Shown here: piece after piece, positions 4,828 through 29,258 of the stretch
Layout: every line of letters begins with the position of its first letter
Numbering within the stretch: position 1 is the first letter of the stretch
NCBI GenBank assembly: GCA_900617105.1
Contig: UYFQ01000320.1
Span: forward strand, 1 to 34,302
DNA: 34,302 nt
Reading direction: 5' to 3'
From: Hydrurus foetidus
Taxonomy: Eukaryota
Notes under the pieces: generated by a model
Databases searched by the model: none
What the model saw: only the letters and a program-made list of their open reading frames with translations
Told to the model about the DNA's origin: nothing
Program-made: the position numbers and the translations under genes

Positions 4828-5802
4828 CCGATTCTGTATTGACTATCGTCACCTCAACGATACAACGGAGTCAGCAAGTTGGCTAATCCCTAATAACAAA
4901 CAAATATTAGAGATTGAGTTCACAAAAAGCAGACACATTCTGTGCAATAGACCCCACTGCAGGATATCACCAAGCACTGTTAACACTAAGTACTCGTGTG
5001 TACACAGCGTTTATAACCTTTATGGGCATTTACCATTTAGCCCGACTACCTTTCGGACCCAGAACAGCCCCCTCATGTTTCCAAGAAATGATGGCCACAA
5101 TAGTCCTTTTGGGACTAATATACCAAATCTGTGAAGTATACCTCGACGATATCATCGTTTATGGTAATGGATTTGAACAATTCTGTGAACGATAAGAAAT
5201 TGTTTTTCAACGTCTCGAAGAGAAAAACAATTCACTAAAAGCAGCAAAGCTTAAACAAAACGTAAAATTAGTTGAATATGTTGGTAAACAAATATCTAAA
5301 GAAGGTATAACTACAGTTCCAAAAAAATAAGAGGAGTGACCGACTTTCCTATGCCAAGAAAGACGACCGAACTAAGATTGTTCTCGGACTCACCAATTAT
5401 TTTCGGGATCATGTACCAAAGCGCACTAATGTGGTAGCACCACTGCATAAAATGATAGATCACGCCGCAAAAAAGCAATCAATGCTAATCTGGACAGACG
5501 CCGCCGCTAATTCTTTCCAAATGGTCAAAGATCTAATTGCACAGAGTCCTTTACTATATTTCATACACGATACAACGCCCATAACCCTTATGACCAATGC
5601 GCCGGATTACGGTACAGGCGGCTATTTACTATTTTTCATGCACAATGCAGTGCCAATAACTCTCAAGATCGATCCGTCGGATTGCGGCATAGGCGGCTAC
5701 TTGTATCGAGAAGTCGACGGGGAAAAACAACTCGTCGCTCTTGTCAGCAAGTCTCTTACCAAGACTGAACTAAAATGGTCAGATATATCATCGCTGAACT
5801 TA
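4828..5802 (+). pseudogene. pol: Gypsy element C pol: reverse transcriptase and RNase H N-terminus (frameshifts, stops)
   Basis: RFCIDYRHLN, AGYHQ, TAFIT, RLPFG, YLDDIIVYG, then DPSDCGIGGYL...SKSLTKTELKWS. Confidence 0.92.
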
Positions 5803-6179
5803 CCGTCGAGTGCCATATGTTTTGTATTTGACTTGTATGGTGTGGGGTAAAAAAAGGTCGTTAGAGCACCTCTGTTACTACATCACAGTAATCACTGACA
5901 GAAACAGCATTACTACTCTCCATACATCACAACTTCATCAATAATTGACCTCGATAGCTGATTTTTCTCCGCGCTTCATCTTTGACATCTGTGTTTTGGT
6001 GGCAGGCGCTGTCGACGTGCCTCGTAAATTTTAGCCAACGTCCTATCAAGGTTTGAAAGGCTCCTTTATTTCTGCCATGGACATGTGTTTTCCTCCATAC
6101 ACCACTATGCCGATCGAAGTGAAGATTGACGATTTGCAGGCATCTCGGCAAAATACTTTAATATCCCGCCAGGTTGTGG

Positions 6180-6193
6180 AATTCAGACGCCCC
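6180..6193 (+). repeat. Inner 14-bp inverted repeat of element 1 (AATTCAGACGCCCC), partner at 9552-9565
   Basis: Exact reverse complement of GGGGCGTCTGAATT at 9552-9565. Confidence 0.85.
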
Positions 6194-6225
6194 TAAATCA
6201 AAAAGAAGCAGCAACAAATTTTGTG

Positions 6226-6833
6226 ATGAGAGAAGTTTTATAATTTTGAACACGCGGAAGAGGAACTTTTGCGCTGAGGAAAGACCTGAAAGCTGTCAAA
6301 GGACTGGTTTGCGATCTACGGAGGAATCCAGATAATCTTCACGGTGCGGCTTTGTCGAGATATACCTTTAAGTCAGCATTAGCTTCACGGATGATCTGTC
6401 AGCATACAACTCACTTCGTGAGTACATAACTTTGATGGCATTTCAATGACAACACCCTTCAATTCACCATTATGCAGATACGAATTGCGTACAAATTATA
6501 GCTCCAGATGATACAGCTGCAGTACATCCTGCAACATACTATCCAGGAGAGCGACTTGGAAATATCAGCCGTGATGCCGCTTCTGTACTCTCGGAGCCAA
6601 TGGACGCACCAAGTCCGCAATTAGATGAGTGCAATGTGTACAGTGTGGGTTACACATTTGTTTGTATACTTCTTGAGGATTCTAGCCATCGCCCTGCAGG
6701 TTTTCTAGTTAAAATAATGGTATACTCTATAAATTCTGATTTATGGACACAAAAACTTTTCGACATTCTAAAAGAGAAAGAGATGAAACCAACAAAGATG
6801 AAACCAACAAAACTAATCAAAATCGAAGTGTAA
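6226..6833 (+). pseudogene. HIRAN-like domain gene of element 1 (predicted intron 6344-6477; 5' part degraded, start approximate)
   Basis: Spliced translation DLRRNPDNLH-D-TNCVQII...PGERLGNISRDAASVLSEPMD fits the HIRAN pattern LxREPxNxxDxNAIxV...GxxxGxIPRxxAxxLAxxxD. A homolog is present in element 2. Confidence 0.7.
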
Positions 6834-6876
6834 AAGTATAATTACAATATACAACTTGCAATATGCAATATATACA

Positions 6877-9500
6877 TTAATTATCGTTTTCATCATCACT
6901 ATCATCAACGTCATCGGTTATTTCTACAACATCGTTATTTTTTGCATAATGTTCTAGAATTGCTCTCTCTAAATATTCGATATTATCAAAATCTTCTTCT
7001 TTTTCTTTTTCTTTTTCATCATCTGAACAGATATCAATCGTACCTTCTGGAACTACAGATAGAGTTCCACATAATTGCTCCTTTTTGTATTTTACGAATG
7101 AGGAAGGTTCAGTATTGGTCTCCGAGGGTATTGGAAATGTTCCCGTCTTGATGAAAGTTCTGTGGATACATTCTTTGAAATTTTTCTCTGTCATCTGTTC
7201 GTTGAACAATCGGATTAAGTCTTGGATACCTTCCAACATTGTAGGCTTTGGCGGATTAAAGTCCAATAATTTACGCTGCACTCGGGGGAGCTTGTTATTG
7301 ATAGCTCTCTCTTCTTTGTACTCGTGGAAGCTTCTGTACAATCTATTCGCTCTATTTGTTCGTATATGAGCCTTTAATGGACCATTTACCACTAGGTCCA
7401 GGACCTGCAGCTCTCCAGTCATATTTTTGGGTAAAAATACAACATCCACCCCGATTTCTCGTATGACATCCATTACACAGGTAGTCTTGTGGCTACCACA
7501 ATTATCACACCAGAGTATCATTTTTCCAATGCTGTCTTTTATTGGTTTTATTAAAACTTCAAACCATAAGATCATTCGCACCGTGTCGTTCCAAGCTTTC
7601 ACCTGACTTGTGATTACATGACCCGTTTCTTCATGTATAATGTAGAGTACCTTGTGCATTGCTGTCACACCATTTATAATAAGCTCACGACTCCATTCCT
7701 TTAGCTTCCAACCATCATTAATAGTAAATCCGTCTTTTTTGTTCAATTCACGGATCACTGTCATAGTGGTCTGATCAGGTTTCTTCTCTGAGCAGACGGA
7801 GTGCTTTATGATGAGCATTAGAGGGGCGAAATTACCCTCGGCACTAACTGCAATTACAGCTGTGATTCTCAACTTTGTATTGGAGATTCCTATATTTGTA
7901 GCTCGCGCTTGATTTATCGGACAGTAGACATGTGTGGGACCTATTGCCCACGTAAAGGCAGTTTCATCGAAATTGTAACACGATCTAGCTGTGTGCTCAT
8001 TCTCGATTAACTTTTTCTGACCGATTCTCAATACGGCAGCAATTTCTTCATCCGAAGGTACTACCTTGTCCTCTCTCGTTATTTTTCTTCGTGTTACTCC
8101 TCCGCGCAGAAGGAATGATTTAACCCATTTACTTGTAAACTTCATATTTTTTATTTCCTCATTGCATAATCAAACTTCTCTAGCTTGAACATCTTTTGTA
8201 ACATTATCGTCTCTACTATCGAATATGAGTATGTAACATTAACAATGACTCTAACATCCTTTTTTATTTCCTGTAGAATATGAAAAAACAATATCGTTAC
8301 TCGTGTACAAAACATATGGTGAACACGGAATACAGTTTTTTTACATACCTCATCTGTGCTTTGTTCCATAACACACATCATCAAATTGCCCCAAATTTCT
8401 GACTCAAATGATTCGTTGATTTTGCGACCAGGTTTCTTCTCGACATGAGCTTTTAAGGAATACCAGCGCCTCATGGTTCGATCAGAAATTTGAGAATAAT
8501 ACGGTATTTGAGATAGCAATTGTACTACAGCTAAAGATGACACATAGTCGGCGTCCTTGTAATCACGAGTATATGCAACTTCGCGCACAATTTCGAAGAG
8601 AGCAATTACGTTTTTACGATCTTCATCACCGAACACTACATATTTTCTTGGGAGGTCAGTATATGCTCGGATTATTTTTTCATCATTTTCGAAATCTTTA
8701 GTAATCATATTCACTACTTCTTCTTTTTCTTTTTCCTCTTCTTCTTCATTTTCATTATCTTCTTCATTGTCACTATCATTTTCATTTTCATCTTCAATTT
8801 CATTATGCATGCTATTTGTAAGCATTTCATCATATTTTATTTTCCTTACAACTGCTACTTTGATTGCAGACTGTAAATAGAATAATGAATCCTTCTCACC
8901 GAATTTCTCTTCTATTGAAGTAACGAGTTTATTTGTACTTAGACTGATCGCTTTCTGTCGGAGTTTGGAGGGTGATTTCCGTACACGAGTTTTTTTTTCA
9001 GGTTTTTTTTTTAGCAATTTTAACAGCACTGGGTAGAACAAATTGCCGAACACAGAAGATGGAGATGAGTGAGAAGAAGGCTCGTAATTATTCTTTAAAA
9101 AAAGACAATTTCTGATGTGAACTATTCTGGCCATCAGATCCGAAAACGCTTCCAACTCAGGACGGCTACTACAATCGTAATTACTAAATTTTATTTCTAT
9201 TGTTCGCTGCGCACCAGTGAGGTCGAAGAAGTCAGGAACAGACTTCGATTTGGTTGATACTACAACAGTATCCATGCCCATTTTATTGAGTTGCTTCTGG
9301 AATAATGATAACCCATGAGACAAGGCAACTGGATCAATAAAAAGATCAGCCTTCGTAGGAGAGTTTTTGGGGAGAAGTTTATTCATTTTCTCGCTAAGTC
9401 CAGTTGCCGTCCATTGAATATCACTTTGTATCATCCTTGAGTCATATCTAGCTAGAATGTTAGCGACCGAAGGCGCAATAGTCAGCAGATAGCTGATAGT
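6877..9500 (-). pseudogene. DDE_1/pogo-like DD35D transposase with long N-terminal extension (intron 8271-8348; frameshift near 8150-8200; start approximate)
   Basis: CENP-B-like FTSKWVKSFLLR, then NFDETA, WCDNCGSHK and LQVLD with 35 aa between D2 and D3. GTATGT donor and CTACAG acceptor; the same intron position occurs in element 2. Confidence 0.88.
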
Positions 9501-9918
9501 CCTTTGTTTTCCCCTTCTTTTTGCCTGGACATTATGGACGCTTAATGTTAGGGGGCGTCTGAATTGCAGTAATAAAACATTTTTTAAGCACTTTTATCCT
9601 TTAACTCCAATGCTCAAAACTTACTCATAGTTTGTGGTTCCATCGATACCGACCGCAAAGATGATGATGAAGTATGAGATGCAAATCTGTGAGCGTGGAG
9701 TTTGTGAGCTATGCTGCCATCATCCAAATAAAAATTGGCCAGTGCGCTAGCTCCTAATGACTCGAAGCAGCAATGCTGCGCAGAATTGATGGTCGTGCAA
9801 TATTGACTGAGTTGTGATGGAGGACATTCATCAGTATATTATGTCCTATTATGTGCAGGATCGACGAAAAAATGTCAAACGACCGTTTCAAATACAAAAC
9901 ATATGGCACTCGACGGTA

Positions 9919-10671
9919 TGTCAATGGACTGCTACGAGATCGTACATTCGCTATCCTGACAGACCACGAAAATTTTACGCTCCTGGAAAAGGATAATGAC
10001 GAGATGGTGGGCAGATGGCGTATGGCCCTGCAGGAACTAGAATACACGATAGGGTATATCCCGGGGAAAAAAAAAAATTGCTGACGCAATGTCTCGCCTA
10101 TGTTTTAACAGAATGCTACCTAAAACAGGGGTAATAGCAGCAATTCTAACAGACAAACCAGTGACGACAGAGCAATATAATCTAATTGCAACATGTTATA
10201 ACACGATTGTAAGACATGGTAGTGTACAACGCACGCTGCATAGTTTAAATAAAACAAACAAGATATGGCTGGGAATGCGCGACGCAGTAAAAACATTCAT
10301 TAAAAATTGTCCTTGTTGCCAAAAGATGTCGGCAATGAAATATCCCATCAAGGCATACAGGTACACGACATCAACATATAAACCAATGAAATGTCTCAAC
10401 ATTGACTTCATTGATCCATTCCCAGATAAAGGATATATCCTTGTTATGATCGACACCTTTTCATGGTTTTTCGAACTCTACGCAAAAGCTGGTGCCACAG
10501 CTAAATCAGCGTGCACAGCACTCGTAGAACACGTGTGGCGATGCGGCTCACCGTGTATTCTTCGATCAGATAATGGACCACACTGTGCAAGCCGCATCAT
10601 TGATAAGTTTGTGAAAATTGTTGGAACAACACACAACAAAATCTTACCATACCGTTTGGATGAAAATGCTA
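9919..10671 (+). pseudogene. pol: Gypsy element C pol: RNase H C-terminus and integrase core
   Basis: LLRDRTFAILTDH...RWRMALQE; Zn-binding region HGSV...CPCCQK; LNIDFI, MIDTFS, RSDNG. Confidence 0.92.
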
Positions 10672-11033
10672 CCGTCTCCCTTCCTTTTATTTATTTCATT
10701 TTCGGTAATCCGGTCACTTCTGGTCTCCATTCTGAGCACAGGAAGTAGTAGTTGACACTGCATCTCACAATCTAAGAAGTACAGCAGTTTAGTGAATATT
10801 CCAAGCTATCTCACGCTGTTCAGCGTTCTGGACGACCGCAACCTTTAATCGCAGATATCTCGAAGGATTCGTCTTTCACTGTGAAAATCAATTCTATTTT
10901 CTCTTTGGCGCAGCAACAGCTTTATTACAAGAAGATATCAGGTTGTAGGACATTTCAAATGACTGCACGAAGTTTGATTCAAACGTGACATGCAATCAAG
11001 TTACCATCGCATATAAGAGTGCATTCTAAATTT

Positions 11034-11047
11034 TGTCCGGAGATTTC
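11034..11047 (+). repeat. Inner 14-bp inverted repeat of element 2 (TGTCCGGAGATTTC), partner at 22058-22071
   Basis: Exact reverse complement of GAAATCTCCGGACA at 22058-22071. Confidence 0.85.
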
Positions 11048-11104
11048 TGAGATGTTTATCGTTTCTAATTTTACGCCACTGAATGCTGTCTCCTTAGGAG
11101 TGAG

Positions 11105-11411
11105 ATGGAATCTTTAGCGAGAGAGTATTGTGCGCACACTGTTGCAATTGTCATTGTTCTACATCCGATAGGGTTAGGTCAACTTTCGCCGAATGACTTG
11201 TCTGTTGAAGTAAATAACTCGGAGTATGGTGTATCGCCGGATTTTACAGTCAATCCCTTAGCGTTGCATCAGGGATTTCATGTTCAAAAAATCTATTCGT
11301 AAGCTGGGACATACTATGATTCAAATGGGTTGTAAAGGGATACCTTCTGTTGCAGAGTTCATGGATCTTCCGGAGGCTGAAATTGGATGGGATATAGTTT
11401 TCTTCCATAGT
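11105..11411 (+). pseudogene. Element 2 transposase, N-terminal fragment 1
   Basis: NPLALHQGF/MFKKSIRKLG...SVAEFMDL aligns by eye to element 1 DPVALSHGLSLFQKQLNKMG...SVPDFFDL. Confidence 0.75.
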
Positions 11412-11669
11412 AGAGTGTTTGCGCAAACGGAAATATCCCGGATATTTGGAATTTCGTCTTTTAGACTTTTCCGAGATTTTGGGGGGTAAAAGCCGTTTCG
11501 GACATTTAGAAAAATCGTCTTGCGCTTTCGGACATTCGATATATCTGGAATGACGAGTTCAAAGTCTTTTTTTTTGAAAATTCGAATTTTATTCTCTATC
11601 GTGGAGTGAAGTACTGGAGCGCTATTCTCGCAAGATGCGTTACAACATGCATCAGTAGATATCCCAACT

Positions 11670-13045
11670 ATGGGAGACGAGTTTGAGACCGTTCTAGTGG
11701 ACCGAGCTCTAATTGGCTCACTGTCTCTGAAACACCGTTGCGCCGGCATCTCTGCTGAAGAGGTTTTGCGGCGAAAGAAGTACCTGCGAGTATCTGCCAT
11801 GATAGTTGCAGGTCTTCTCGATGATGGCTACAACAGTGTCGATAGTGATGACAGTGTCGAGGAGGAGGAAGAGAATCGTTGTGTTCCAGAGGATGACTCT
11901 TTAGAACTAGTCAGTTATTCTCTGTTGAAGGAAGTCATTTCAATTGATGAACCTATCAATATCACAATGTCGAAGCTGACGAAGATAGTGATAACGACTG
12001 ATAGTTATTCCGATGAGCAGTGCTGGTCGTTGCTTCGCTTTCGCAAGCCTGATATAGTTAAGCTCATTGGTCAGCTCGTTATGCCGCCGTTTCTATTTTC
12101 TCCCTCACGTCATCGTTACTCGAAGGAATTTTCTATCCTACTCTTGTTAAGGCGGATGGCTTATCCAGGGAGACTTCACGACCTTGAGATTGAGTTTGGC
12201 AGAGAGCACACCTCCTTGAGCCGATCTCTGGGCCTGACTGTGGATTGGATGCTCGCAAATCATGGTTTTCGCATAACCGACAACTTAGGCTTTTGGATGC
12301 CTTATCAGGAAACTTTTGCAAGAGCTGTTTCATCGAAGACAAACGTTCCTCTGGAATTCGCAAACGTAAACTCTTTTTTAGATGGCACGCAGAAGTCTAT
12401 ATGCCGTCCTAGCGATGGTGAAGGAAGGGTGGAAGATATTCAAAAGACTTATTATTCTGGATACTATAGGAAGCATGGTTTTAAGATGCAATCCTTAATG
12501 TACCCTAACGGTGAGATCGTAGATTTTCTTCATTTTAAATTGATTATGGTTTAAATTGTATTACAAACTTACTTTTCATTGCAGGTATGATTGGTGATCT
12601 CTACGGCCCTGTTTCATGTCGCCGTCACGACTCCTACCTATTGAGAAAGAGTACGTTACATGACAGATTGACTGCCTTGCTTTCGAACTTCCCTGTAGAT
12701 TATTTGTGTTACGGTGATTCAGCTTATCCTAAACTGCGTTTCATCACAAGAGGTGCGAAGAGGCACAAAGTTCCTAATCCCTTAAATATAGTCGCATTAG
12801 AAAATAGTAGAAGAATGTCAAAAGTTAGAGAATGTGTTGAGTGGGGATTCGACAAAATTATCAATCTTTGGGCCTTTTTAGACTTCTCAAAAAATCTTCA
12901 GATGTTCTCTTCGCCAATTTCTACGTATTACACCGTCATGGCGTTCCTCACTAATTGTCACACTTGTTTGTACGCCGGGCAAACATCACAATTTTTCGAA
13001 TGCGCCCCACCAACACTAGAAGAATATCTTTGTCCAATTGTCTGA
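11670..13045 (+). CDS. Harbinger/HARBI1-like DDE_Tnp_4 transposase, apparently intact (intron 12511-12584)
   Basis: LRFRK, LRRMAYP, FLDGT, YYSGY..KHGFK, NG|MIGDLYGP...RRHD, YGDSAY, RECVEWGF. A GT-AG intron joins the two ORFs in frame. Confidence 0.92.
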
Positions 13046-13369
13046 ATCTAACTTAATTGGAGCTCATTCTTGAGTTATGTTTTTTTTTCCTTAGTGTAAA
13101 AATTTGATGAAAAAAGATATTGATCAAAATTTATCGTCACAGAAATGATCAAAATTACTTTTTCCCAAAATGCAGCTAGGTAAATTAATAAAGTTTGGAA
13201 ACATTTGCAAAAGCACAGAGTTTGAATCTTTTATTTTGGCGTTCGTTTTTGAAGGAACGACGTCAAAAACTGCTGTGACAGACACCTATTTAAAAAAAAA
13301 ACGGAAACGGTAAATTTCCCAATTATTTCTAGCTGTCACATGGAAGAATCACAATTAAACTAAATCAGC

Positions 13370-14197
13370 ATGGTCATCTGTAATTACAGATTCGGTTCGA
13401 ATGTTTGTCTGGATGAATGCCATAAAACAGACGGTGGCAGAGTTACTTCAAAATGCAAGAAGCATCTTAATCAAGCTGCCAAAAAGTCGAGAAAGAAGTT
13501 GATTAGGAAGATTGAATTCACCTCTCCGAGAGATGCCCTCATAGCTAAAGCCACAGAAAATTCGGAAGCGAAGAAGCGCACTCAAAGATCTAGAGCAGGG
13601 AGACAAGACGCCATAGAGACCATTCAGAATGACAACGTCAGGAGAATAGCGACTATCCTTAACAGAATGAAGGATAGCAGAAAATACGTTATTGTGGCTA
13701 ATGCAGTTGCCAGTACTTTGAAGCCTGAGGACTTTAAATTGACTGGTGTAGCTGAGCCAATCACTTTCTCCAACACGCTTCCTCCATTCCTTCGAACAAT
13801 GCAAGCTCTGGAGGATCCCTCAGTACATTTATCTGATGTTTTGGAAGCCATCAATTCTGTATTTGGCGGATGTTGCAACATTAAAGCTAAACTTCTGAAT
13901 TCCAAAGCAGGCGACACAGCACAGAAAAATCACACTGACAACGTGCCAGACAAGACAGCACCGCTGAAAACCTTGTCTTCTTTTCATTACTCTGCACTAA
14001 TTAGCTTAGAAGAAAACACGACGCTGCTTGTTGGCAAAGGCCGCAAGACAGTAAGCATTCCTCTGCATTCCATGATATTTTTCAGAGGTGACATGACTCA
14101 TGCAGGGGCTGGATACACAGAAGAGAACTCAAGGCTGTTCATTTCAGTGTCATCTGCTGCATTTCCGGCTACTGAGGATGTTTCATTGGTAAACTAA
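13370..14197 (+). CDS. 2OG-Fe(II) dioxygenase-fold protein with N-terminal Cys/His Zn-finger-like motif (transposon cargo)
   Basis: Intact 275 aa. QKNHTD (HxD), FFRGDMTHAG (distal His) and NSRLF (2OG-binding Arg) occur in DSBH order; N-terminal CNY..C..C..CKKH plus a basic tract. Confidence 0.8.
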   Translation: MVICNYRFGSNVCLDECHKTDGGRVTSKCKKHLNQAAKKSRKKLIRKIEFTSPRDALIAKATENSEAKKRTQRSRAGRQDAIETIQNDNVRRIATILNRMKDSRKYVIVANAVASTLKPEDFKLTGVAEPITFSNTLPPFLRTMQALEDPSVHLSDVLEAINSVFGGCCNIKAKLLNSKAGDTAQKNHTDNVPDKTAPLKTLSSFHYSALISLEENTTLLVGKGRKTVSIPLHSMIFFRGDMTHAGAGYTEENSRLFISVSSAAFPATEDVSLVN

Positions 14198-14257
14198 ATA
14201 ACTTTTTGAGGCTCTATAATTTAATTAATAGAGATCACTTAGCAAGATAAGACAAGT

Positions 14258-15010
14258 TTACTTCTTCGCTAAAGATTCCATGGCAATTTTTAACATGGCT
14301 TTAGACATCTCGTCTCTTCTAATAGAATCCTCTCGTGCTTCTTGGCGAATCAAGCGGGCCTCTTCGACTGCTTCTTGACGAACTCTCTTTGCCTCCTGGA
14401 ATTCCTCCTCTCGCAGCAGCATCTTACGATCCTCCAGGGAATGCTTTCTGTCCCTGTCGACAGATGTGTCTTCGTCGGCTTTCTTGGAGAGGACCTTGAT
14501 AAGCATGGAGTCCAAGGTGTCTTTCTGCTTGATCGGTTCTCCATCAGGAGTGGGGCGGACGAAAGGCTTTTTGTTCGCCTTCGGAGTCACTCTTCCCTTT
14601 GTCAATTCCAGATCTTGAGCCGCGGATAGAGCTACCACTCCTTCTTTTGCCTCACGATCCAGATCGGCGTGGTCCGCTTCCTCCTCCATTTCTGCAATGA
14701 TCTCCTCTAAACCCGACGCTATCTCGCCTATATCTTCAGTTCCGCCAGATTTCCACTAGTGGTCCTTCTTGTTAGCTTTCTGGATGGTATGAAGTTTTTC
14801 GAATTGAGTCAGGCAAGTTTTGCCGCTGGGAAACGAGTTACCGAGGAAAGTTTCCGTCCTCTCTTTTAAAGCAGCTGCAACTCCATCCCAAAACGCGTTC
14901 TTCTGACCGTGGCCGATCTTTGCATAGTTGCAAATTCTGACTGGGTGGCCAATAGCTACCTCACTCACTAAAAACTCATTGGCCTCCTTCGTCCAAACTG
15001 TATTTACCAT
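14258..15010 (-). pseudogene. Myb/SANT-like accessory protein of the Pangu-like element, one in-frame TAG at 14756-14758
   Basis: WTKEANEFL...FWDGVAAAL...KTCLTQFEKL...*WKSGGTED continues in frame into the coiled-coil ORF 14258-14689. Confidence 0.78.
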
Positions 15011-15181
15011 CTTGTTTTCAGGTTTATTTGATCTCGGATATATCTCGGATATATCCGAGATCAAATCTCCGAGACTCGGCGATTCTCGGAGGAAATTCTC
15101 GGAGATTTGACGAAAGAGGGGGGTAAATCTCCGAACCCTGGGGTTTGAGCCGGATATTTCCGTTTGCGCAAACACTTTAGT

Positions 15182-15924
15182 GATCAAGAACTTCTCACGA
15201 ATTCAGAGATTATGTTGAAAGTGACAACAAACGCGCATTACTTCATGAGGCAGAAGGGATCAGTAGCACAATATTCATCACTATCTGAGATTGGTGCTAC
15301 ACTTTGGCAGAGACAGCTTCCTACATGCAGGCCTCCACCGATCGTCTCACTGATAATCCAAAAGACACCGGACATCGTTCATCACAAAGGGAGAAAGTGC
15401 AGCAATGAATTAGCCGGTAGACAACTGAGTAATTGCGGTAAAAAAGTCATAAAAATGGTGTCAAGCCAACTGTGCGTAAATAATGAAGATCCATTGGGAT
15501 ATCTAATCGCTGCAATTAAGGAAACAAGAAATCCATACGACTCAGTCTGCAAAGCTATATTTACAGGAATGGAAATTGACGACGATTTTGAACCAACGTA
15601 TGAGAAGGTTTCCAACGAATTACATCGGTATCTGCAATACCTAAAAAGTACATAACGTTCAGTTCCGAGGAGAAAGATGCGCTGCTTAAGATATTTGACA
15701 TTACTCGCGAAGCGTTCTTGGAAATTCATGGCCAATACCAAGCGAAAATCAACGTTCACGCCAGTATGATAACTAAATATATATACTGAGCTCCTTAGCA
15801 GGCTTCTCTGAGTTGGTCCCTTCATCAATAGAAAGGTGGAACCGTAATAGGGAAAAAGTATTAAAAAAAACAGGACACAAAATAAATTCGGATTTTGAAG
15901 CATCAGTCTGGGGTAAATTGATGA
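15182..15924 (+). pseudogene. Element 2 transposase, N-terminal fragment 2
   Basis: LGYLIAAIK and KKTGHKINSDFEASVWGKLM match element 1 LFYLQSAIK and KKPGRKINESFESEIWGNLM. Confidence 0.8.
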
Positions 15925-16164
15925 GGCCAATCCTTAACGTAACCAAAAAAGTCATAATTTGTTCTTTTTTTGGATGAGAATTGACCGGGGGACATTTCGT
16001 AACCATACAAAATGACGTGTCCTGAAAATTGAAATTTCATTTTATTTTCGGATGACGAAATCCTACTAGGAAACGGCTCTCTTTCCTAGTCGGATTTGAC
16101 CATCCAAAATCACAAATCCCTTAGAATCCTCGTCAGACATAGATCACAATATCATCAACCAAAA

Positions 16165-18092
16165 ATGGTGAAAGTGAAACCTGAGAGTGCGAAGCAACCG
16201 AAGAAGGGTAAGCCTAGAGGCGCTAAAGTTTCTGCCAAGCAGCCAACTCGTTCATCGCCTCGTTCGCCTACGGCGCGGTCGAACACGGCGTCAAATCGTG
16301 ATGGTTTATCAATCCTTGACGCCCAGCAGCAGAAATCCTTCAAGGCGTGGATTGCGGAGATCAAGCAAATCCAAGGATTATTGATCTGTCAATGTGGTCT
16401 CTCTATTCAGTCGAAGAGCTACTGCACGCAAACTGCCCAAGACGAATTGTTCGTCATCAACTTTCCTCTTTTCTACGATATATGGTGCAAAGATCCTGTT
16501 CTCGGAAGCCGTGTCAGTAAAATTCCCTTGCTATATTTGACCGTCGGTACCAGCAAAGCAATGGAGACAATCACTGGAGAGAAAATGCGCAAGAAATATA
16601 GCTCTATGAAAACCTACATCAACAATACTCTAACTCCCATCTACAAAAGGTTAGTGATTTGTTAAGCAAAAGTTGTCTACCGTTTTCTGATTCTCTGCTG
16701 TAATCATAGGCTTACAAGGAATGGCATTCCTTCAGGGAAGAACGAAGGAGACGTCCTAAATGAGGTTCGCAAGGAAGCTCATTCCGTGAGAGGGAAGTCG
16801 GCAAATGATGATCCACAGGAGGAAGCTGATGATCCACTCAACTCATCACTTAGTTCAGTGACAACGTCAAACGCCGCCATATCTGCCAGTTCATCTTCTA
16901 GCTCATCCTCCAGCTCGGCATATATTTTTATAAAAGCGAAGGAAGATTGGGAGAATTGGTATCCCATGGAGTGGATTGCATGGACCACTTTTGGAGTACC
17001 TTCTGATGAACCTACTGTGCATTGGGTAAACGAGGCAATTGAAGATGGTCCTGAAGTTACAGAGGGAAGGAAGAAGCCTCTTGGCAGAGTTGACCAAAGA
17101 AGAAAAGAGAATGAACTCAAAGCAACCACCAAAGCAACAACAGAAATCAATGCTCTAAGAATTACTGAAACCACTCTCCACCAGAGGGAAGTCACTATGG
17201 CTGAGAGAGATAATGATCTCAATCGGATATCCTTCTTCATGACATTTTCGAAGACTCCTGCAGCGATCGTAAGTACATTTTTTGTCACTTTCGTTTTGGT
17301 ATTTTCATCAATTATTTATCGTAACAACATATGAGTATTTTTTGAAAGCTGACTGATGTCGTTGACAATATCCTAAACGTGAACAAGGCGAAGCCCTGGC
17401 AAAAAAAATCTAATTAAAATGTCTTGTGTACATTTTAGGAAAGAGCGGAAAAACTACTGGAAATATACATGGTCCATGAAAATGATCGTCTTAGCAGCAA
17501 ATTCAGTCAACAACCAACTAGCAGCTCCAATATACTTACTCAGCCACTTTCTACAATGACAATACAAGTTGCAGAGCAACTTCCATCTGTATCAGTTAAA
17601 GAATCGTATGTTGAAGAGGAGGACGCAGATGAGGAAGATGCCTTCGAAAATTTATCTTCCTACTCTCCTAATTATGAGGATGGAAACCCCTTCTCTCTAG
17701 ATGACGATACCCAGATGCCTCCTGAATCCCCCAAATTTGCTGCGTCTCCTATTGTTTTAGTTGAATCACCCCTGGTCAGTAATATTCCGATTGTCGAACT
17801 TAGAGTAGTTACAAGGCGTGCTGCCAAAGTGATGAAAAAAAACAAATATGACAATCTGACTTTTGAGGAAATTGATGTATTCTTACTCAGAAGGTATCCA
17901 TTCACATCTGAACCTGGTATATTATGTATTCAAAAATTTGATCCCGTTTCTGCTACTATAGATTATCAATTACTGCTCGAAATTGATGAGAAAAATGACC
18001 CAAAATTACGGTTTGTTAAGGCATGGCTTCAAAGACTAAAAATTGCTTTAATTAAGACAAGAGCTGACTCAGACGATGATTTAGATCTTTAA
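16165..18092 (+). CDS. Harbinger accessory (Myb/SANT or NAM-associated-like) protein; introns 16650-16709 and 17269-17438
   Basis: Three ORFs are joined in frame by GT-AG introns. TGEKMRKKY...GIPSGKNEGDVL resembles Harbinger partner proteins. Confidence 0.65.
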
Positions 18093-18122
18093 ATTTTACA
18101 TAAATTTTTATTATTTAATAAA

Positions 18123-19635
18123 TTAAGCGTGTATATATAAATAAATTTGAATCCATTTTAATTTACCTTCAAGGTATTGGTTGGTGAGATGCTTAACAAG
18201 TTTACTACGAAGATCAATAAATTTATCAGAAGTCTCTATGTCTTCCACATCTAAGCGATTAGCAAAATTAATATTATTAATATTTCTATCATATGTTCCG
18301 ACTGATGAATGGTCTACATTATTCTCTACAGTTCTAACTACCCTTCTCCTAATTTTGTCTAAAACAACTTGTTCCTCTTTGTCATTATGTGCATTATATA
18401 ATTCATTTTCCCATTTTTCATCATACCCATCAAATTCATGCAACATATTGTGAAGTATGACACATGAAAAAACAGCTTTATCAATATCATTTTTGTTGTG
18501 CCAATTAATTCCAATTTTTAGAGTAATTGAAATCTTTTTTTTAAAATACCAAAAGAACATTCAACATCTTTTCGAATACTCTCCGCAAATTCTGACCATC
18601 TAATCTCATCAATATCAGGAGTGTGTTTAATAGGGCATTGCATAATACGCCATTTGTGATAACCACCATATACACCTTTTTCTGTAATCCATTCATTAGG
18701 ACTTATTTGAAGCTCATACTGTGCATTAGTGAAACGTTTCTTGGTTCTAATATCCTGAACAAATCCATCAAATTTGACGATTGTTTTATCTGAAGTGGTC
18801 CCATAATGTCCTATAGTCGTAGCTTGAAATTTTTTAGAATGAGTTACTGTCATCTCGTAGGCAATTGACGTAAAGGTATGTTTCCCATTACGATATGTTG
18901 TTGCCTCTACTGAAGGACACTTTTCCCACCTAATGTGAACACAATCAGTAGATCCAATACACCCTGGAAATCCACTCGCCGCATAGAGTCCAGAGACACT
19001 TTCCATTTCTGAATTATTACGAGGACCATGAACATAAGAGGGGTACATTTCCTTAGCAAATCTTGCAATGAAGGCTAATGTCCATCTTCTATGAACTTCC
19101 GCTGAAACACCAGAAAGTTCATACAAAAGGTCCCAACTACAACCTTTACCAAGAATTCGAAGAGTTCCCAGTAACTTAAGCTCTATTGGTGAAACCTCCT
19201 TTCCATACGCATCAGACAATCTTTGAGGGAACCATGCATTTGCCATTAACAATAACTCTTGAAATAATTGAAATGGTACTGTAAAGCGATTGCGGAATGG
19301 TTTTCCCATCACGACTAGTCAAATCGGATAAATTGTCCCTCTGAAAAAAAATTCCACCAACAGCTTTCTCTGTAATTCTCCCTAATATATGATTTTCTTT
19401 TAGTTGGCTGCTTTGCTTCCATTTCACCATCTTCATCGACTTCTTCTCCTTCATCATCTACTTCCCCAGCCTTCTCAACATCGCTGGTAGCATCACTTTC
19501 GGCATTAAGCTTCCTTCTAGCTCGACCACTTTTCAGGAGATCAGTTAACGAAGGGACATTATCCTTTATCCATTGTTCCATGTTTAAATTGTGATGTTGA
19601 CGATGAAATGCACGATGTAAAATGGAGTCTTCCAT
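18123..19635 (-). pseudogene. Plant_tran-type Harbinger transposase, frameshifted, second catalytic Asp region deleted
   Basis: FRNRF, GFPGCIGSTDCVHIRWEKCP, RKDVECSFGILKKRF, CVILHNML. KGVY-GGYHKW lacks the expected Asp. Split across three ORFs. Confidence 0.9.
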
Positions 19636-19854
19636 AAAATAAACATCTTTTTAGATGAAAAAATATTTTGATATGGATGAACATTACGGCACAATCTATC
19701 CGGAAAAATCAAAAAATATCCAAAAAAATGGTAAAGTATAATTTTGGATAAAGATAACCATACGGCACACTATCTAAATGCATTTTATCCAGAAAAAGTT
19801 GTCCAGAATTTTAAATTCGGATTTTTTTTTGGATAATGTTAAGGAATGGCCTGA

Positions 19855-21365
19855 TCTGTGAACATGAGACAAAAACGGTAAATTTATGTTGCTGTTTCAT
19901 TCGACATATTCATAAGTATGTCATCTTTATTTGTTTTTTATTTCAATTGAGATTTATTTTAGTTAATCAATCTAAATTCAATTATTCAAAATTGTTTATT
20001 GCTGCAGGATGAAGATGGAGATGAAATAAGTGAAACACGCATTTTGGTTAGTGTTGTTTACTCTTACGCTGTTATAATTGAGGCTGCAAAATCCGTGCAA
20101 CAATTATACCATTATGAGGATGAGTGGGGTATAAGTGATCTGAAGTTCAGTTCAGCCTGGGTACGAGGTTTCCTGAACCGAGCAAATCTAAGACGGAGAA
20201 AAATAACAACCGATGATAAGAAGATTCCTTCCATAGGAGAAATTGTAGCAATTATGAGCATTGGACAAAATTTGATAAAAGAGTTCGGATATGGACCCGA
20301 CAATATATTGAACATGGACGAGACCTTTTTACGTACGCCATCGGACCGGAGTACATGTACGTTCCGGGGGACCAACATAGGGCACAGAATATCGGTGTCC
20401 CCAATGCGAAACTACGTATCACAGCAGTTGTTGCTGTCTTTGGTTCCGGTGTATTCGCGCCACTCTTTATCATCATCAAACACACTGTCAGTTCACTTGA
20501 CAGACCTGATCAATCAGGTATGAAAGTGATTAAAACATTGTACAATAAAAATGACGGATTTGGTGTTAGTGATGGGTGGAAGTTAGTATTGTGGGAGAAA
20601 GAGTTGACTATAGGAGATGTTACAGCCATTCATAAATGTTATTACATTATCAATTATGTGACTGGTGCAGTCATAACTAGCCAGTTTAAGGCTTGGAATG
20701 ACACTGTTAGAATGATAATGTGGCTTAAAACCATTGTAGCACCATTGAAAGAAAGATTAGGAAAGTTATTGATATGGTTTGATAATTGTGGATGCCATAA
20801 AACAGCATTAGTTGATTCTGTCATAAAGAGTCTACAGGTACGTGTTGCTTGCTTACCTCCTAACATGACTGGTGTACTGCAAGTCTTAGATTTAGTAGTG
20901 ATTGGTCCTCTTAAAGCTCACAGTAGAAAGCTCCGAGGATCGCGCATTGTTGCATCCTTTCAAAAATTTGCTGAGCTTCATCACTTAGAGTCATTAAAAC
21001 CTGCTGCAGAACGCAACGTTCTTGAGTTTGAGCCCCCCAAACCTGATATGTTAGAGGGAATTCAAGATTTATTTAATTTGTTTGCTTATGGCTTCAAAGA
21101 GAAGAAATTCACTGATGGAGTTAATAGATCATTTATAAGTACTGGATGTTTGCAAGAATTGCATGATGATCCCACTGTCATTAATTTTTTACCTTTCATA
21201 AAGCACAAAAATAGCGGTACAATGAAAATTACTCTAATCGGGACAACGAACTATAGCGATACTTCAGTAATTGATGAGAACTTGAACATTGTTCAAGCTA
21301 TGAATATTTTTCTAGATTATGACAGCGAGGATGAGTCTGCTATGAATGCAATACTAAATCTTTGA
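19855..21365 (+). pseudogene. Element 2 DD35D transposase, HTH and catalytic part (intron 19878-20007; frameshift near 20325)
   Basis: FSSAWVRGFLNR, NMDET, WFDNCGCHK, LQVLD; strongly similar to 6877-8145. Confidence 0.9.
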
Positions 21366-21480
21366 TCTTTATGCTGGTATCATTTTGTAAATATTAATTA
21401 TAATTCATTAAAATCAAAATGAGAGATTTGATAATACAACAGAGGCAAGCAAAAAAAAGAGCGAAAACATGAATAAATTT

Positions 21481-22020
21481 TTATAAACGCTCACAATTGA
21501 TTAGAATTCTAGTAGGGTTCGATTCCATCTCGCAGAATTTCTGATACATATCATGATTGAATTCTTCAGTGTTATTACTCAGCACTATGATATCGATGTC
21601 GTAACCTAGTCTAGTATGCTTTATTTCGTTGTGTGCAAGATGACCTTGGAAAGATACAGTAAAGTGATGTCTATCTATAACAGATGCAAGAACTTTTGCG
21701 AAGTTCCTCGAGATGTGACCGATGCGCTCCCCAGGAATGAAGCTTCCCTGAGGATCCAAGAAATTGTGGGCGCTACCAACTCAGTGTAATTGGCATCTGT
21801 GAATCAGATCATAGGCAGCTGTTGAGTACGTTATTCAAATCGGACATGTGCGCAACAGTATTATAGCATACTAAACAGATAAAATTAGCTATGCAGCTGA
21901 CCATGCAATTTATTCGCGTTCCTCCGCAATCCATAGTACTCTCCAGTCCTAACTTTGATCGATTTGTCAAGCGCAAACAGGCCGCTAGCGTGGCTCCGGA
22001 ATCGCATGACAGGAACCATC
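21481..22020 (-). pseudogene. HIRAN-like domain gene of element 2 (predicted intron 21797-21901; frameshift near 21765; start approximate)
   Basis: GLFALDKSIKVRTGEYYGLRRNANKLH-D-ANYTELVAP...PGERIGHISRNFAKVLASVID; same intron position and phase as element 1. Confidence 0.7.
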
Positions 22021-22468
22021 TTTTTGAAATAACGAATGAATCGACAAGGTTAGCTTCGAAATCTCCGGACATCACGGAATCATGTTGTAAGCACCGATCG
22101 CCAACTAGAAATATCTGATACTTGACGAAATGATCCGCATTCGAGTTCAACTCGGACGATTTCAGGAAAAACAGTTGAGAACGTTTCTTTCCTCCTCGCT
22201 GAAGAGAAGAACGTCCGAATCGCAATTTTTTTGTATAGAATTGGATTAGATGACACGAGCGTTCCAAATATACGAAGGTTTCCTGTGACATTCGCTACCC
22301 TCAACTCAGTATTGTATCAATTCTGCAGTGATCTCTAAAATATGAGAGCATAGTGATGACGGGGAAAATAAAGTGGATTACACAACACACCACCCAAATG
22401 AAATAAATAAAAGGAAGGGAGGCGGTATGCGTATGCGGTTATGTGGCAATTGGTTTCTTTGTCGATAC

Positions 22469-22984
22469 GTGAAAATTGTTGGAACAACACACAACAAAAT
22501 CTTACCATACCGTTTGGAAGAAAACGCTATTGTCGAACGTATCGACAAAGAAACCAATTGCCACATAACCGCATACGCATATACTACCGTTCGTACAAAG
22601 AATACTGAATTCAACCGTCAGGCACAACTTACCTGCGGCAACGCGATCGACCTTCAGAGAGATGATCTGGTAACGCACAAAGAAAAAAAGTGCTACATGA
22701 CCCAACTAAAACCGTTTCAATTTGACCCTACGCATGTCGACCCAACCGACATTGCTCGTAGAGAATATCTGGAATTCTTTATAGAAGATAGACTAGAAAT
22801 GAAAGGAAACATAAGAGCATACAAATCACTCACGATTCATGTTAAATGGCTCAACTATACCCATGAGCACAACACATTGGAACCGTGGACACACATACAC
22901 AAAGTGCAGAAAGTACATGAGTTCTTGATTAAAAAGACCCTCAAACACTTAATCCCACGCAAATTTATCACAAACTACCGTTAA
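22469..22984 (+). pseudogene. pol: Gypsy element C integrase C-terminus with chromodomain
   Basis: ENAIVERIDKE (third catalytic E), LKPFQFDP, then EFFIE...HVKWLNY..EHNTLEPW chromodomain. Confidence 0.85.
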
Positions 22985-24486
22985 CCGGTCAAAAAAAATT
23001 GATTAACTAAATCATGAAGATTTCTCCTGAATTGGATCCTCTGGGATCATTTAAGTCGGACAAAATCTATTGACAAGCTGAAATAGCAAGCTAAAAATAA
23101 ATATATCTTATGTTGCAAGTATCTCTATTCACCGTAGTTACTTTCACCCTAACTATTTACAATTATCATAATCAATTCTGATGCGCCAGTTTGTCTTTCG
23201 CCGTTAAACCGAGTTCCGACAGCTCAAGATTACTCTGTGCATTAGGAATCGATGACAGGTCAGGGCAATGTACCTTTGTGTCATCAATCAGCCGCTTATA
23301 ATAATTTGAAGGGAAGGGACAGATAACCAGCCAGGACTCCATTGCCATCATCTAGCATCCTTGTTTCAAAGCCAGAAAAATTCCAGAGTTACTGATCAAC
23401 ATCGTAAAAAAGGCAATCTATGCCAGAATCGCAAATTGCTGAATGGACATTAAAAGTGGTAAAATAGTGACACTTTGCCTTCACAGAAAGGCTAGGGTAA
23501 TGCACCCAGAGTCCTACAACGAAATAACCTTTAGCAGGGCTGCAAGTAACATATAATAAGCAAGTTGAGCATCAGAATCTCGATTTGATACAGTGGCGAA
23601 AGAGCTGATCTCTACGAGGAACACCAAGAGCATCACGAGCTTGAGTGTAAAAGAATGAGTGAGATCTGGATTGAAAATGTCTTTCATGAAGTAAATTTCG
23701 ATTATAATTTACAAACCATTTCTCGTTCAAATTGGCAATTAAAAAGCAAAACTATACACCCGATGTCATGTACTATTCACTGGGCCGTTAGCCTGTCAAT
23801 CACGTGAAAGACGTCCTGTCAGCGACAGTATGTAGTTCGGCTTCCTTCGAAGAGGAATAGAAGTAATGTTCAAGTCCCAATTACCCGTGCAGAAAAAATA
23901 GATGTGACTTCTCCACTACACTGCACTGTGTTGTACAATACTGCTGCCTATCTCAGTGACAGCCCTGCTGCATTAGCCACAAGTCACTCTATCTGTCACT
24001 CTGCCTGAGACTTGACCACATTGACAGTCAGAGTACGCACCCAAGAGAGCTCGATGACAAGGGGCTTCTAGCCTCACGCATCTCATCTAGTGCTCAAGAA
24101 GTGGTGTGGTGTCATCCCTGACAGTTAAGTCAGTGTGTGTCGTGCCTTATATATCAACCATTTAATGATGAGAGTAGGAGAGATAAGACCCCTCTGACGT
24201 ACGTACTGCACTAGTGCGTCATCCATCTGACTAGAGAGGCGAGACGAGACAGTGTGCACCTCTTCACTTAGCAGTGCCAAGTTATGTGTGCTGTGCCTTA
24301 TAGTGCTGCTCGTAATTTCTGACGTTTTTGAATCAAACGGATCATTCCTTGACTCTGAGAACCTCCATGATGTCTTCGGTATTAGCGATTGAGATGGATC
24401 GGCGATTGGGTAAAATTCATCGTAGATGCTGAAAGCTTTCTCTGTTCTGTGGCTTTTGCAAGCATCGTAGGTGGTAGTCAGCGTGT

Positions 24487-27400
24487 TCATATTAGGTCAT
24501 CGTCTCTGCGGCGGTGGTACCGACTGTTCATGTCCGCGAACAGAGCGGAAGATGAGGGAGCTGGAAGAAACAAATACAACAGGATTCGTTAGTATGAGAT
24601 TTGAATGAATGGGTTATTTTCAGTCGCTCAGATGTTCTCCTGACGCACCTCTGCCTGACTTGGCCGGTACCGCAACTGCTGCACTATCGTACGGCTCACA
24701 CGACACAGACACGCTTTCTGCGGACTGACTGAGTGCAAAGATTACAGAAAAGCAGAAGGGTTAGTGGCTGCCAGAGGAATAAGGGAAAATATAGCGAAGG
24801 GGCAGGGACGCATCACCTGTAGTCCAGATAGTCGATCGCAACGTCTGCCGCCTTCTCGCCCCAAGTAGCTTCAGCGAGCAGCAGAGACGCCCTGCCTGCC
24901 AGAAGAGCTTCCTGAGAGAGTGCGTGTATAGGCGTGGGGTGCGGATGAGATGTGCGGGTAAGTGTGATTTTTAGGGACGACCATCTCAAATGTGATCATC
25001 TATTTTACAATTTATATGGTCGGAGGGACTTAAAGGCAAAAAGAGATCGAATAATAGGAGCAAGGATGGCACTGGACTAGACTTGCCTGTTCAGCTCCGT
25101 CGAACGGCTGGGCGATGGTTTTCATCCGAGGTAGAGCCTTCCACAGCTCGGGCAGAGACTCAGCTCTAAACGATCTAAGAGTAAGAGTATGAGCATGTGA
25201 GGTGTTTCGGATGGAATGACAATGGCGATAGGTAGAATTTGATATGTCATGTACTGCACCGTAGACTGACCTCAGCAGCACAGGACCAAGAGTCAGAGGC
25301 ACGATGTACAAGAGGGCGGGCTGACCAGTCTGCAAGGAAGATTACGTTGCGTGAGAAATCTATCACCTTTCTCGCAACAGATGATTCGCATGAAATAAAA
25401 TCGACAGCAGTAGATTGAGCGACCTCGAAGTAAGACACTGCGAAGTTCGCCACCATGAGGCCGATGGCGTACCCGAACACGACCATTGGGAAGTGCCCTC
25501 TGCTCGCATAGTGGGAGGAGAGCGAGCCGTACCTCCTGATGTCCAGCCTGAGGGGTCATCAAGACGGTTAGTCAGTCAGTCAGTCATGACTGTTGAAGCA
25601 TCGTAGCAAAGTGTGATGTGAAGTGCTTACCGAGCGGCCCACACAAGCAGCAGTCCGGGCAACACGATGTCCCCCAGGCCCAATAGGCTTTCGCTGCTCA
25701 GGTAACCGCTGAAGGTGGGCACAACGAGCAGCATGGGTAGAGAGTTCAAGTCACAGTCGCTGTCAGTGGGGTACTTCTCGCAGTAGTTCTCATCTGTGTG
25801 GACGGTGCCTGACGATCCTGTGGCCACCGTCACCATCACGGAAGAACCAAACACATAGGGTGAGATGAAGACGAAGAACACATCGTAGCAGAAGGCCAGA
25901 CCTGCAGAGTGATGGCACGGTGGTAAGAACAGAGCGGATGAAACTTAGGTGAGAGAGTCGCATGGTACTGCGGAGCCATCGGAATATACAGGGGATTGAC
26001 AAGGTTGCCAAGATGCTTTATTTTTATTCGGATTCGATGCCGTGCTGCCAAAATAGACACAGCCTTTTCTGACTGCAAAACGTTGATGAGGATAGCAATA
26101 TTTTTTTCCATCCATCAAGCTAGTACGATGAATGCTGTCACCATCGGTCAAACATACAGACATACATGCAGATGAGAAGGAGCAGTGCTGACCTAGTAGA
26201 ATTGTGGCTGCTTTGAGGTTGGGGAGGTGCACCGAGGAGAGGAAAAGCATACACACGGACACAGCCAAGAAGTCCTGCACCAGCCATATCCAGTTCAGGT
26301 CCTCTCGGTAGAAGAACCACAGCACACACAGACCAGTGGACAGACAGCCTGAGGGATGGAGGGAGCAGTAGCAGAGTAGCAGAGATGGTTAGTCGGTTGT
26401 TTAATGTTATTACCCTAGATCTGCCTGCTCATCCACTATTCTTTATGGTTTGTCTCCGCATGCGTTGTGTCGGCTGTTACCTACCTGAACATATCATGGG
26501 GAGAGTGGCACCGCATATGTCGTCCTCCTTATCTAGATCCGGTACTTCCTCTATCTCTACGTTGAGTCTGATGGCGGTGTACGTGCGCTGCAGCCGTACG
26601 AAGAAGGGATGGAAAAAGACCTTGGAACTCGCGAAAGCTGCGGACATCAAGTAGAGCAGGCTGACAAAGAAGTAGATATCTATGAAATACATGATCAGCA
26701 GGAAGGAGGAGGACAGCAAGATGAACCCGAGGGCGTGGTGCGGGGTGATCTGCAACGCATCCGTCTCCACGTCATCGTTGTCGTTGAGCCCTTGAGGAGA
26801 GTAGGACTTCGATGCAGCTGAACGACCTTTCCCTTTCAAGCTGTCCGTCTCGAACCTTCCATATGAATCCCTCCGCCTATCCCTGTTCCTCTCTCTGTCT
26901 ATTCCCCAATATCTGTCTTCTCTGCTAGTGCTGCTGCTGCCTGATTCGACGCTTGGCAGTCGATCTAGGCGCAGACCTCTTCTGCTATTGCTATTGCTGC
27001 TTCTGCCCTCTAGAATTCTTGCACCGCTACTAGTGTCTGCGTGTGTGCGCACATCATATATGTATATGTATATAGAGAGAGGGATGCAAGTGTGTGATAT
27101 ATTCAATGAGTAGGGGGGACGAATGGCATTATGAGAGAAAACGCTTTAGAAAGGGACAAGGCCATGCAGAAAAGATAGTCGCTGCTGAAAGTAGATCAGT
27201 GGCAAGGGAGGGATAGCCAGCAAACATGTACTACGAGCACTGTAGCAAATTAAATCAGGGCGAAGTCAAGATGCGAATGATAGCGTAGAAAAGAATGATG
27301 GGAGACACGACAAATACGATAAATCAGTTTATAGCACAACGCTACGCACTTGACGGGGAGTGAGTTTGAGAAGAGACTTTCTCCTCGTGGGCGATGCTGG

Positions 27401-28886: not shown

Positions 28887-29258
28887 TACAGTGATGATAT
28901 CTTCATCTTTCCGTATTCAGTTATCAAATTATGAGAGACCGCAGTTGATCATATTCTCTATATCTCACAGCCACATCCCTTCAAACCAATGCAGACACGC
29001 AGATACTCCTCTATCCTCTGTGCACTGCAGTGGGTGCTAGAGGCACAATGCACGTATTGCATGCTGTAGACTGTAGATCGTAGAGACAGAGCTGAAATTT
29101 TCAGTGCTTTTTGCTTTTTGGCTTTTTGGAGTATATAAAAGATAAAAGGAGCCTACTGTCGGAATAACTGTATGTTAAAATGTCTATTCTCCAGCAAATT
29201 GTCCTACCGGTGGACATGCTGTTGTCCCACCGGTAGAACAAAACGTTTCAGGCACATA

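Follow-up and report, generated by a model that had tools for sequence, protein, structure and literature searches.

Pogo-type DD35D transposons of Hydrurus foetidus that carry a gene for a predicted stand-alone HIRAN domain beside the transposase

Two pogo-type DD35D transposons in a 34,302-nucleotide stretch of DNA from Hydrurus foetidus (GenBank assembly GCA_900617105.1, contig UYFQ01000320.1, positions 1 to 34,302 of the forward strand; the window, below) each hold, in addition to the transposase gene, a second gene for a protein of about 140-155 residues that, by prediction, consists of a HIRAN domain standing alone. These elements, here called A and B, are a variant of pogo-type elements that was not found in the literature searched; their architecture and the fold are well supported, and the function is predicted. 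An initial annotation of the same DNA had placed two such elements at 5803-9916 and 10672-22425, and these ends are borne out by terminal inverted repeats (TIRs) and TA duplications (Table 1). The TIRs of A are 29 bp long and perfect, and those of B are 30 bp with one mismatch; the terminal CCGTC said to be common to both holds in general but not at the right end of B, which reads CCGCC. With its two nested Harbinger-type elements removed, B measures exactly 4,054 bp, close to the 4,114 bp of A, as had been estimated.

In both elements the second gene lies inside the TIRs and runs tail to tail with the transposase, the convergent arrangement already annotated, with 43 bp between the two stop codons in A and 115 bp in B. 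Aligned locally, the spliced peptides of A and B score 168, where 1,000 shuffles gave a mean of 26 and a maximum of 43. The first coding exon is 118 nt long in A, in B and in two further loci described below (L050 and L051), and the intron that follows it has an identical position in A and B, in phase 1, where it splits the codon of the residue equivalent to D94 of HLTF. For A, the annotated intron at 6344-6477 is removed in contigs of both RNA runs that cover the element (X17 and X18, from two studies) and in neither of the two DNA runs (X3 and X7), all of these being labelled as biofilm and freshwater metagenomes. The labels make a freshwater protist the likely host; runs X19 and X20, of small share, did not enter into this. 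A second intron, 6051-6172, which the initial annotation did not contain, is spliced in X17 and X18 too, and the exon upstream of it is non-coding by a frame check, with an in-frame stop ahead of the start codon. Set against the window, the contig of X17 has differences at 6242 and 6297 alone; in its spliced form the first stop (6241-43) is open and the stop at 6247-49 is retained, so that this RNA derives from a decayed copy. Reading TGA as a residue was considered and dropped, as the related protein P0193 has Arg at that position.

For B the corresponding intron is predicted from the sequence, with GT..AG ends, and no contig came from either RNA run (X17, X19), which is not evidence of silence. 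In a comparison with P0190, a relative in which the intron is read through, the two exons of B agree with it at 33 of 39 and at 61 of 82 residues; the frame of the intron agrees at 19 of 35 and contains four stops, a pattern that lends indirect support to splicing.

Searches with the second coding exon yielded 40 proteins, plus 79 representatives at 50% identity. The spliced junction is present in none of these 119 family proteins, so gene callers see only halves of the gene; four of them (P0190, P0193, P0244 and P0249) read through an insertion at the intron site. Scans with the Pfam HIRAN model (PF08797), which took in only intron-split halves or intron read-throughs, gave a sub-threshold match in 22 of 37 split relatives, always over one shared stretch. 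When family profiles were compared with the PDB, the HIRAN domain of HLTF took the top rows (E 0.002-0.003); P0190 alone, searched with phmmer against the PDB, had no HIRAN match. An AlphaFold2 model of P0190, built on a 71-row alignment, reached a mean predicted local distance difference test (pLDDT) of 82.8, with its lowest values, 54-64, in the part that derives from the intron, over three blocks of 10 residues. This predicted model matches the six-stranded barrel with two helices of HIRAN and superposes on the HLTF domain with Z 13.9 and a root-mean-square deviation of 2.4 A over 117 of 121 residues; next come Lp_0118 (PDB 3k2y; Z 11.1) and Rad5 (Z 10.3), with unrelated structures from Z 5.7 down, and the top ten Foldseek matches are all HLTF HIRAN (E 2-6e-4). 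The HIRAN-like identity first proposed from the letters alone thus gains from the predicted fold and the HLTF profile matches, but it misses the Pfam cut-off. The protein resembles the HIRAN domains of HLTF, Rad5 and Lp_0118 in this fold and in mostly keeping the residues at N91, D94, H110 and K113. It stands alone, like the bacterial Lp_0118 and unlike HLTF and Rad5, with no helicase or RING domain. From known HIRAN domains in general it differs in sharing about 20% identity with them, in a variable insert after the helix and in being encoded by a eukaryotic transposon.

K113 of HLTF presumably has a role in the pocket that holds a DNA 3' end. Other parts of that pocket are described in the literature: in HLTF, D94 reads the 3'-OH and two bases are gripped between Y72 and Y93 (PMC5773155), there is room for one dinucleotide in the cavity, and function is lost in an N90/N91 double mutant (PMC4666394). 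Eight sequences have both halves of the domain (A, B, L050, L051, P0190, P0193, P0244 and P0249). By the profile alignments, the R87 and D94 positions are kept in all eight, N91 in seven, and position 93 is aromatic in seven, with six His and one Phe. For D94 only these eight were counted, because the figure of 38 of 40 in the full column is biased by rows trimmed at the motif. The position of H110 is His or Asn in 75 of 82 rows and that of K113 Arg or Lys in 79 of 81. Judged from these residues, the 3'-end pocket appears partly kept, and binding of 3' ends by the transposon protein is likely.

The occurrence of the gene in related elements was followed in 51 loci chosen by transposase alone. 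A family profile finds it in two of these, L050 (E 4e-39) and L051 (E 1e-50), which are also the closest to A by transposase (63% and 57%), and in both it has the convergent orientation, the 118-nt first coding exon and the intron of A and B. The gene of L050 is intact, its spliced reading frame being open over 152 residues. That of L051 is interrupted by a single stop, and beyond this gene lies a TIR that resembles the one of A. Many of the other loci end early and are uninformative, L022 and L006 among them, and in six of the nine non-carriers that have both TIRs, less than 500 bp lies behind the transposase match. A divergent HIRAN gene in L011 and L036 was considered and set aside, with no HIRAN match among 105 downstream frames of 15 loci. 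The assembly that contains L050 and L051 bears the title of a bacterial metagenome-assembled genome, yet both loci hold spliceosomal introns and eukaryotic transposons and are therefore probably misbinned eukaryotic DNA.

In a FastTree phylogeny of 54 transposase rows, one branch with support of 93 splits the four carriers from 14 non-carriers, the latter being counted where the transposase has a TIR behind it and is covered over at least 200 residues. The distribution requires one change, and none of 500 shuffles was as low. A quick IQ-TREE analysis, with a wrong-frame N-terminal piece for B, gave this split a support of 84. The gene may have been gained once; as the trees are midpoint-rooted and contain no named reference transposases, a single gain is compatible with them rather than demonstrated. 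Among A, L050 and L051 the proportion of nonsynonymous differences (pN) in the HIRAN-like gene is 0.33-0.44 in all three pairs and the synonymous proportion (pS) is 0.79-0.92, which is saturated, so that no ratio of the two is given; the introns of the same three are no more alike than shuffles, again in all pairs. The protein is clearly conserved, and these comparisons point to purifying selection.

The initial annotation had taken the gene for an ancestral module rather than a chance capture. Two more independent carriers with the same gene and intron, the signs of selection and the clustering in the tree uphold the module, but it is limited to one subclade of the wider CCGTC/DD35D clade. 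Since the two closest loci carry it and the more distant ones do not, the HIRAN-like module would be ancestral to that subclade and dispensable in sister lineages. Beyond L050 and L051, three pairs of proteins lie on contigs of equal size (P0130/P0143, 11,483; P0132/P0145, 2,325; P0008/P0068, 1,932), which is circumstantial evidence of co-occurrence, and a 1,278-nt contig of run X5, with 47 differences, spans the end of the B transposase and the second gene. Nothing in the viral contigs matched the HIRAN-like or the transposase alignments, and a metagenome scan with the transposase only returned distant relatives alone. Contigs of X17, X18 and X7 pass from the TIR of A into different flanks (at window positions 5802 and 9918), and the A-type TIR family is therefore present at further sites.

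The transposases themselves are of pogo type, as was first annotated. Pfam DDE_1 (PF03184) matched both above its cut-off (E 2.2e-10 in A and 6.8e-10 in B), 35 residues lie between the second and third Asp of the DDxD triad in both, which makes it DD35D, and the TA duplications agree. Across the catalytic region they are 45-51% identical. Of the pogo DNA-binding motifs considered (HTH_Tnp_Tc5 as well as BrkDBD and HTH_psq), HTH_Tnp_Tc5 reached E 0.043 in B, below the Pfam cut-off, with no match in the broken pieces of A, whose gene has a predicted intron at 8271-8348 and is disrupted by a frameshift near 8200 and also, at about 8170, by a stop. The carrier transposases are also extended at the N-terminus, by a region of about 200 residues (8808-9473 on the minus strand in A; pieces near 11100-11411 and 15182-15650 in B; 6-104 in L050), of which part is kept in L050, and A and B have a short motif in common when compared by eye. 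This extension has no Pfam or PDB match and no clear match among the 49 loci that lack the gene (L001 at E 0.33); a single-sequence model of the A extension has a pLDDT of 38. A motif in it that looked like PD-(D/E)xK was rejected, being absent from B and finding nothing in Pfam or the PDB. One database protein, P0213, has a fragment of this transposase clade fused in frame and in the same direction with the HIRAN-like protein's C-terminal half, and is probably a rearranged copy.

As to what the protein does, we tentatively favour, as plausible rather than probable, the reading that it caps the short 3'-OH overhangs left by excision, as a cap or a decoy. Excision would leave 3' overhangs of 2-3 nt at both the ends of the element and the flanks of the donor site, much as Sleeping Beauty and mariner leave 3 nt on each (PMC7827188), and the HIRAN pocket, sized for a single-stranded dinucleotide, would bind them. 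HLTF grips such an end through its HIRAN domain and strips Cas9 from the post-cleavage complex, and the isolated HLTF domain is a dominant negative in vitro that blocks both Cas9 removal and resection (PMC11237066). A protein with no motor could keep host translocases of the HLTF/Rad5 type, and resection, away from the post-cleavage complex or from the donor break, which would make a jump more likely to succeed. Its part would be that of a helper rather than a requirement, because sister lineages lack the gene. The further idea that a pogo lineage turned a host DNA-end sensor into a tool of its own, outcompeting HLTF/Rad5 and steering repair its way, we consider more doubtful.

Several points weigh against this account of gene, fold and function. 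The gene is absent from all 49 of the more distant loci (best E 5 with the family profile), among them the nine non-carriers with both TIRs (L003, L007, L009, L010, L011, L016, L018, L034 and L037), and both window copies are broken, A by stops at 6241-43 and 6247-49 and B by a frameshift near 21768, so that the RNA of A demonstrates splicing and not a functional protein. The best Pfam HIRAN score, 18.9 bits, is below the gathering score of 24.7, and the fold model is of one relative of B, P0190, with its intron read through. In the pocket, B has Lys at the N91 position, Y93 of HLTF is replaced by His or Phe, and the Y72 loop was aligned by no tool, with no Tyr evident there. The cleavage geometry is borrowed from Sleeping Beauty and mariner and not from pogo, and every functional step is inferred.

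The change at Y93 and the lack of an evident Tyr for Y72 would fit a HIRAN fold that was kept while 3'-end binding was lost, the protein then serving as an adaptor or regulator of the transposase, perhaps binding metal through Cys and His residues. Three such residues are conserved (A numbering: Cys43 in 32 of 39 rows, Cys102 in 75 of 93 and His110 in 78 of 93), but they are not invariant, B lacks two of them, and the positions of N91, D94, H110 and K113 are mostly kept; we regard this alternative as unlikely, though it deserves a hearing. Somewhat harder to credit is a targeting tether: bound to nascent 3' ends where forks stall or repair takes place, the protein would bring the transpososome to these sites and couple its jumps to replication. 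The HLTF domain does bind the primer 3' end at stalled forks (PMC5773155), and the N-terminal region common to the transposases of A, B and L050 is a possible docking surface, yet the insertions of A and B are at ordinary TA sites in a retrotransposon. An action on the host, with fork reversal and damage tolerance dampened so that breaks are repaired by copying and the spread of the element is favoured, would draw on the same dominant-negative behaviour of the isolated domain over HLTF in vitro (PMC11237066), but an effect on that global scale would probably come at a cost for the host, and we hold it improbable.

The convergent gene might instead matter mainly as a transcription unit whose antisense run-on through the transposase gene limits the activity of the element. 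The closeness of the stop codons in A fits this, and so do the two RNA skips with GT..AG ends on the plus strand at 7481-7766 and 8058-8431, which suggest spliced antisense RNA across the transposase gene, perhaps by read-through from the HIRAN-like gene. The contigs show neither strand nor a single transcript, however, and selection at the protein level and a conserved fold are not needed for antisense control, which makes this, as the main role, quite improbable; antisense regulation could also act alongside a function of the protein. The broken window copies and the sister lineages that manage without the gene would also suit a neutral passenger, a fragment of a host gene captured by chance and separately by each element. 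Against that, orientation, start, 118-nt exon and intron site are identical in all four carriers, whose transposases are 46-63% alike, the protein is kept where synonymous sites are saturated, and none of the 79 representatives has a helicase or other host context; such a capture is very improbable and, to our mind, largely refuted already.

Harbinger elements carry a Myb/SANT partner gene beside their transposase. Other two-gene DNA transposons are known, namely KolobokP with a His-Me endonuclease (PMC9587614), carriers of TET/JBP (PMC12730594) and carriers of Fanzor (PMC10530073), and A and B resemble all of these in joining a DDE transposase with a conserved accessory gene inside the element. 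They differ in that those accessories are enzymes or transposase-loading factors and, in the available text, none is a repair-type DNA-end-binding domain. The pogo superfamily has been described with one or two transposase-encoding open reading frames (ORFs; Gao et al. 2020, PMC7386202). A and B have its traits, namely DDE_1, DD35D as in Passer and Fot/Fot-like elements, TA duplication, short TIRs (at most 40 bp in the superfamily) and a length within 1.2-5.2 kb, and CCGTC termini also occur in the PasserA-SAR, FotD and Fot-like rows of Table S1 of that paper; unlike its members, they hold a second, spliced, non-transposase gene inside the TIRs and have the extra N-terminal transposase region. 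With Passer (Wang et al. 2023, PMC9976928) they have DD35D, TA duplication and short TIRs (mostly below 30 bp in Passer) in common, a combination that Passer and Fot-like elements both show and that is therefore not diagnostic, and their length is near the top of the Passer range of 1.6-4.0 kb. Passer has a single ORF of 400-500 residues, unlike the two genes and the predicted transposase of roughly 800 residues here, and because of the second gene and the long, intron-containing transposase gene (6877-9593), A and B were not filed as Passer. The word HIRAN does not occur in the available text and eight supplements of PMC7386202, nor in the available main text of PMC9976928. HIRAN has been linked to phage replication (PMC3417536), and no HIRAN-bearing pogo element was found in the literature searched, which included few subscription papers and did not cover Repbase or Dfam.

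The window is eukaryotic DNA, with spliceosomal introns and a multi-exon gene. Both elements are inserted in the pol region of a Ty3/gypsy-type retrotransposon, with its reverse transcriptase-RNase H region to the left of A, the integrase between A and B, and a chromodomain to the right of B, all by Pfam. The reverse transcriptase-RNase H region has a 75-bp tandem duplication at 5550-5699. To the right of B (22426-22581), a 45-bp perfect inverted repeat surrounds a 66-bp duplication of integrase sequence from the stretch just left of B (10611-10676), a rearranged flank of the insertion site. Within nested element 1, an ORF at 13364-14197 on the plus strand encodes 277 residues with, by eye, an HTD...H spacing that we take to recall a 2-oxoglutarate/Fe(II) dioxygenase, although Pfam has no dioxygenase match; the element also holds a convergent pair of ORFs at 14258-15202. 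Three ORFs of nested element 2 at 16090-18092 on the plus strand, with no Pfam match, converge on its own transposase and are probably exons of its partner gene. Beyond the transposons, the minus strand at 24125-28934 has a multi-exon host gene with a PA domain by Pfam, presumably similar to a signal peptide peptidase-like protease, and the plus strand at 30556-32483 has a zinc-knuckle ORF resembling Gag, with pol-like pieces of another retrotransposon after it.

Table 1. Coordinates of elements A and B, their genes and the elements nested in B (UTR, untranslated region; HTH, helix-turn-helix).
Feature	Position	Strand	Remarks
Element A, pogo-type DD35D TIR transposon	5803..9916	none	4,114 bp; TA at 5801-5802 and 9917-9918
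Left TIR of A	5803..5831	+	29 bp
Upstream non-coding exon, HIRAN-like gene of A	5957..6050	+	RNA contig X18; 5' end not defined
5' UTR intron of A	6051..6172	+	GT..AG, 122 bp; joint in X17 and X18, none in DNA runs X3 and X7
First coding exon of A	6226..6343	+	118 nt; N-terminal half of predicted HIRAN fold
Conserved phase-1 intron of A	6344..6477	+	GT..AG, 134 bp; spliced in X17 and X18
Second coding exon of A	6478..6833	+	C-terminal part of predicted HIRAN fold
Transposase of A	6877..9593	-	about 200-residue N-terminal extension, acidic linker, HTH region, DD35D domain
Skip antisense to transposase of A	7481..7766	+	GT..AG; X17 contig; one run; splice ends fit + strand only
Skip antisense to transposase of A	8058..8431	+	GT..AG; X17 contig and X18 loose end at 8059
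Right TIR of A	9888..9916	-	29 bp, perfect match
Element B, pogo-type DD35D TIR transposon	10672..22425	none	4,054 bp un-nested; TA at both ends
Left TIR of B	10672..10701	+	
Nested Harbinger-type element 1, within B transposase gene	11412..15178		DDE_Tnp_4 transposase; 3-bp duplication
Nested Harbinger-type element 2, within B transposase gene	15925..19851		Plant_tran/DDE_Tnp_4; 3-bp duplication
Transposase of B, HTH and DD35D part	19963..21365	+	frameshift near 20280
Second coding exon of B	21481..21796	-	frameshift near 21768; Pfam HIRAN E 0.004, 17.4 bits
Phase-1 intron of B	21797..21901	-	GT..AG, 105 bp
First coding exon of B	21902..22019	-	118 nt; 33/39 residues identical to P0190
Right TIR of B	22396..22425	-	one mismatch; reads CCGCC

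Descriptions of pogo and Passer elements give them a transposase and nothing else, and the elements serve as tools for gene transfer. Because an intron that splits the domain hides it from ORF finders and from Pfam, genes such as the one in A and B may be under-reported. That a helper with a predicted DNA-end-binding fold is conserved suggests that such elements can influence how the host repairs the breaks they make, and a small end-capping factor of this kind could help to steer repair after cleavage by a transposase or by Cas9.

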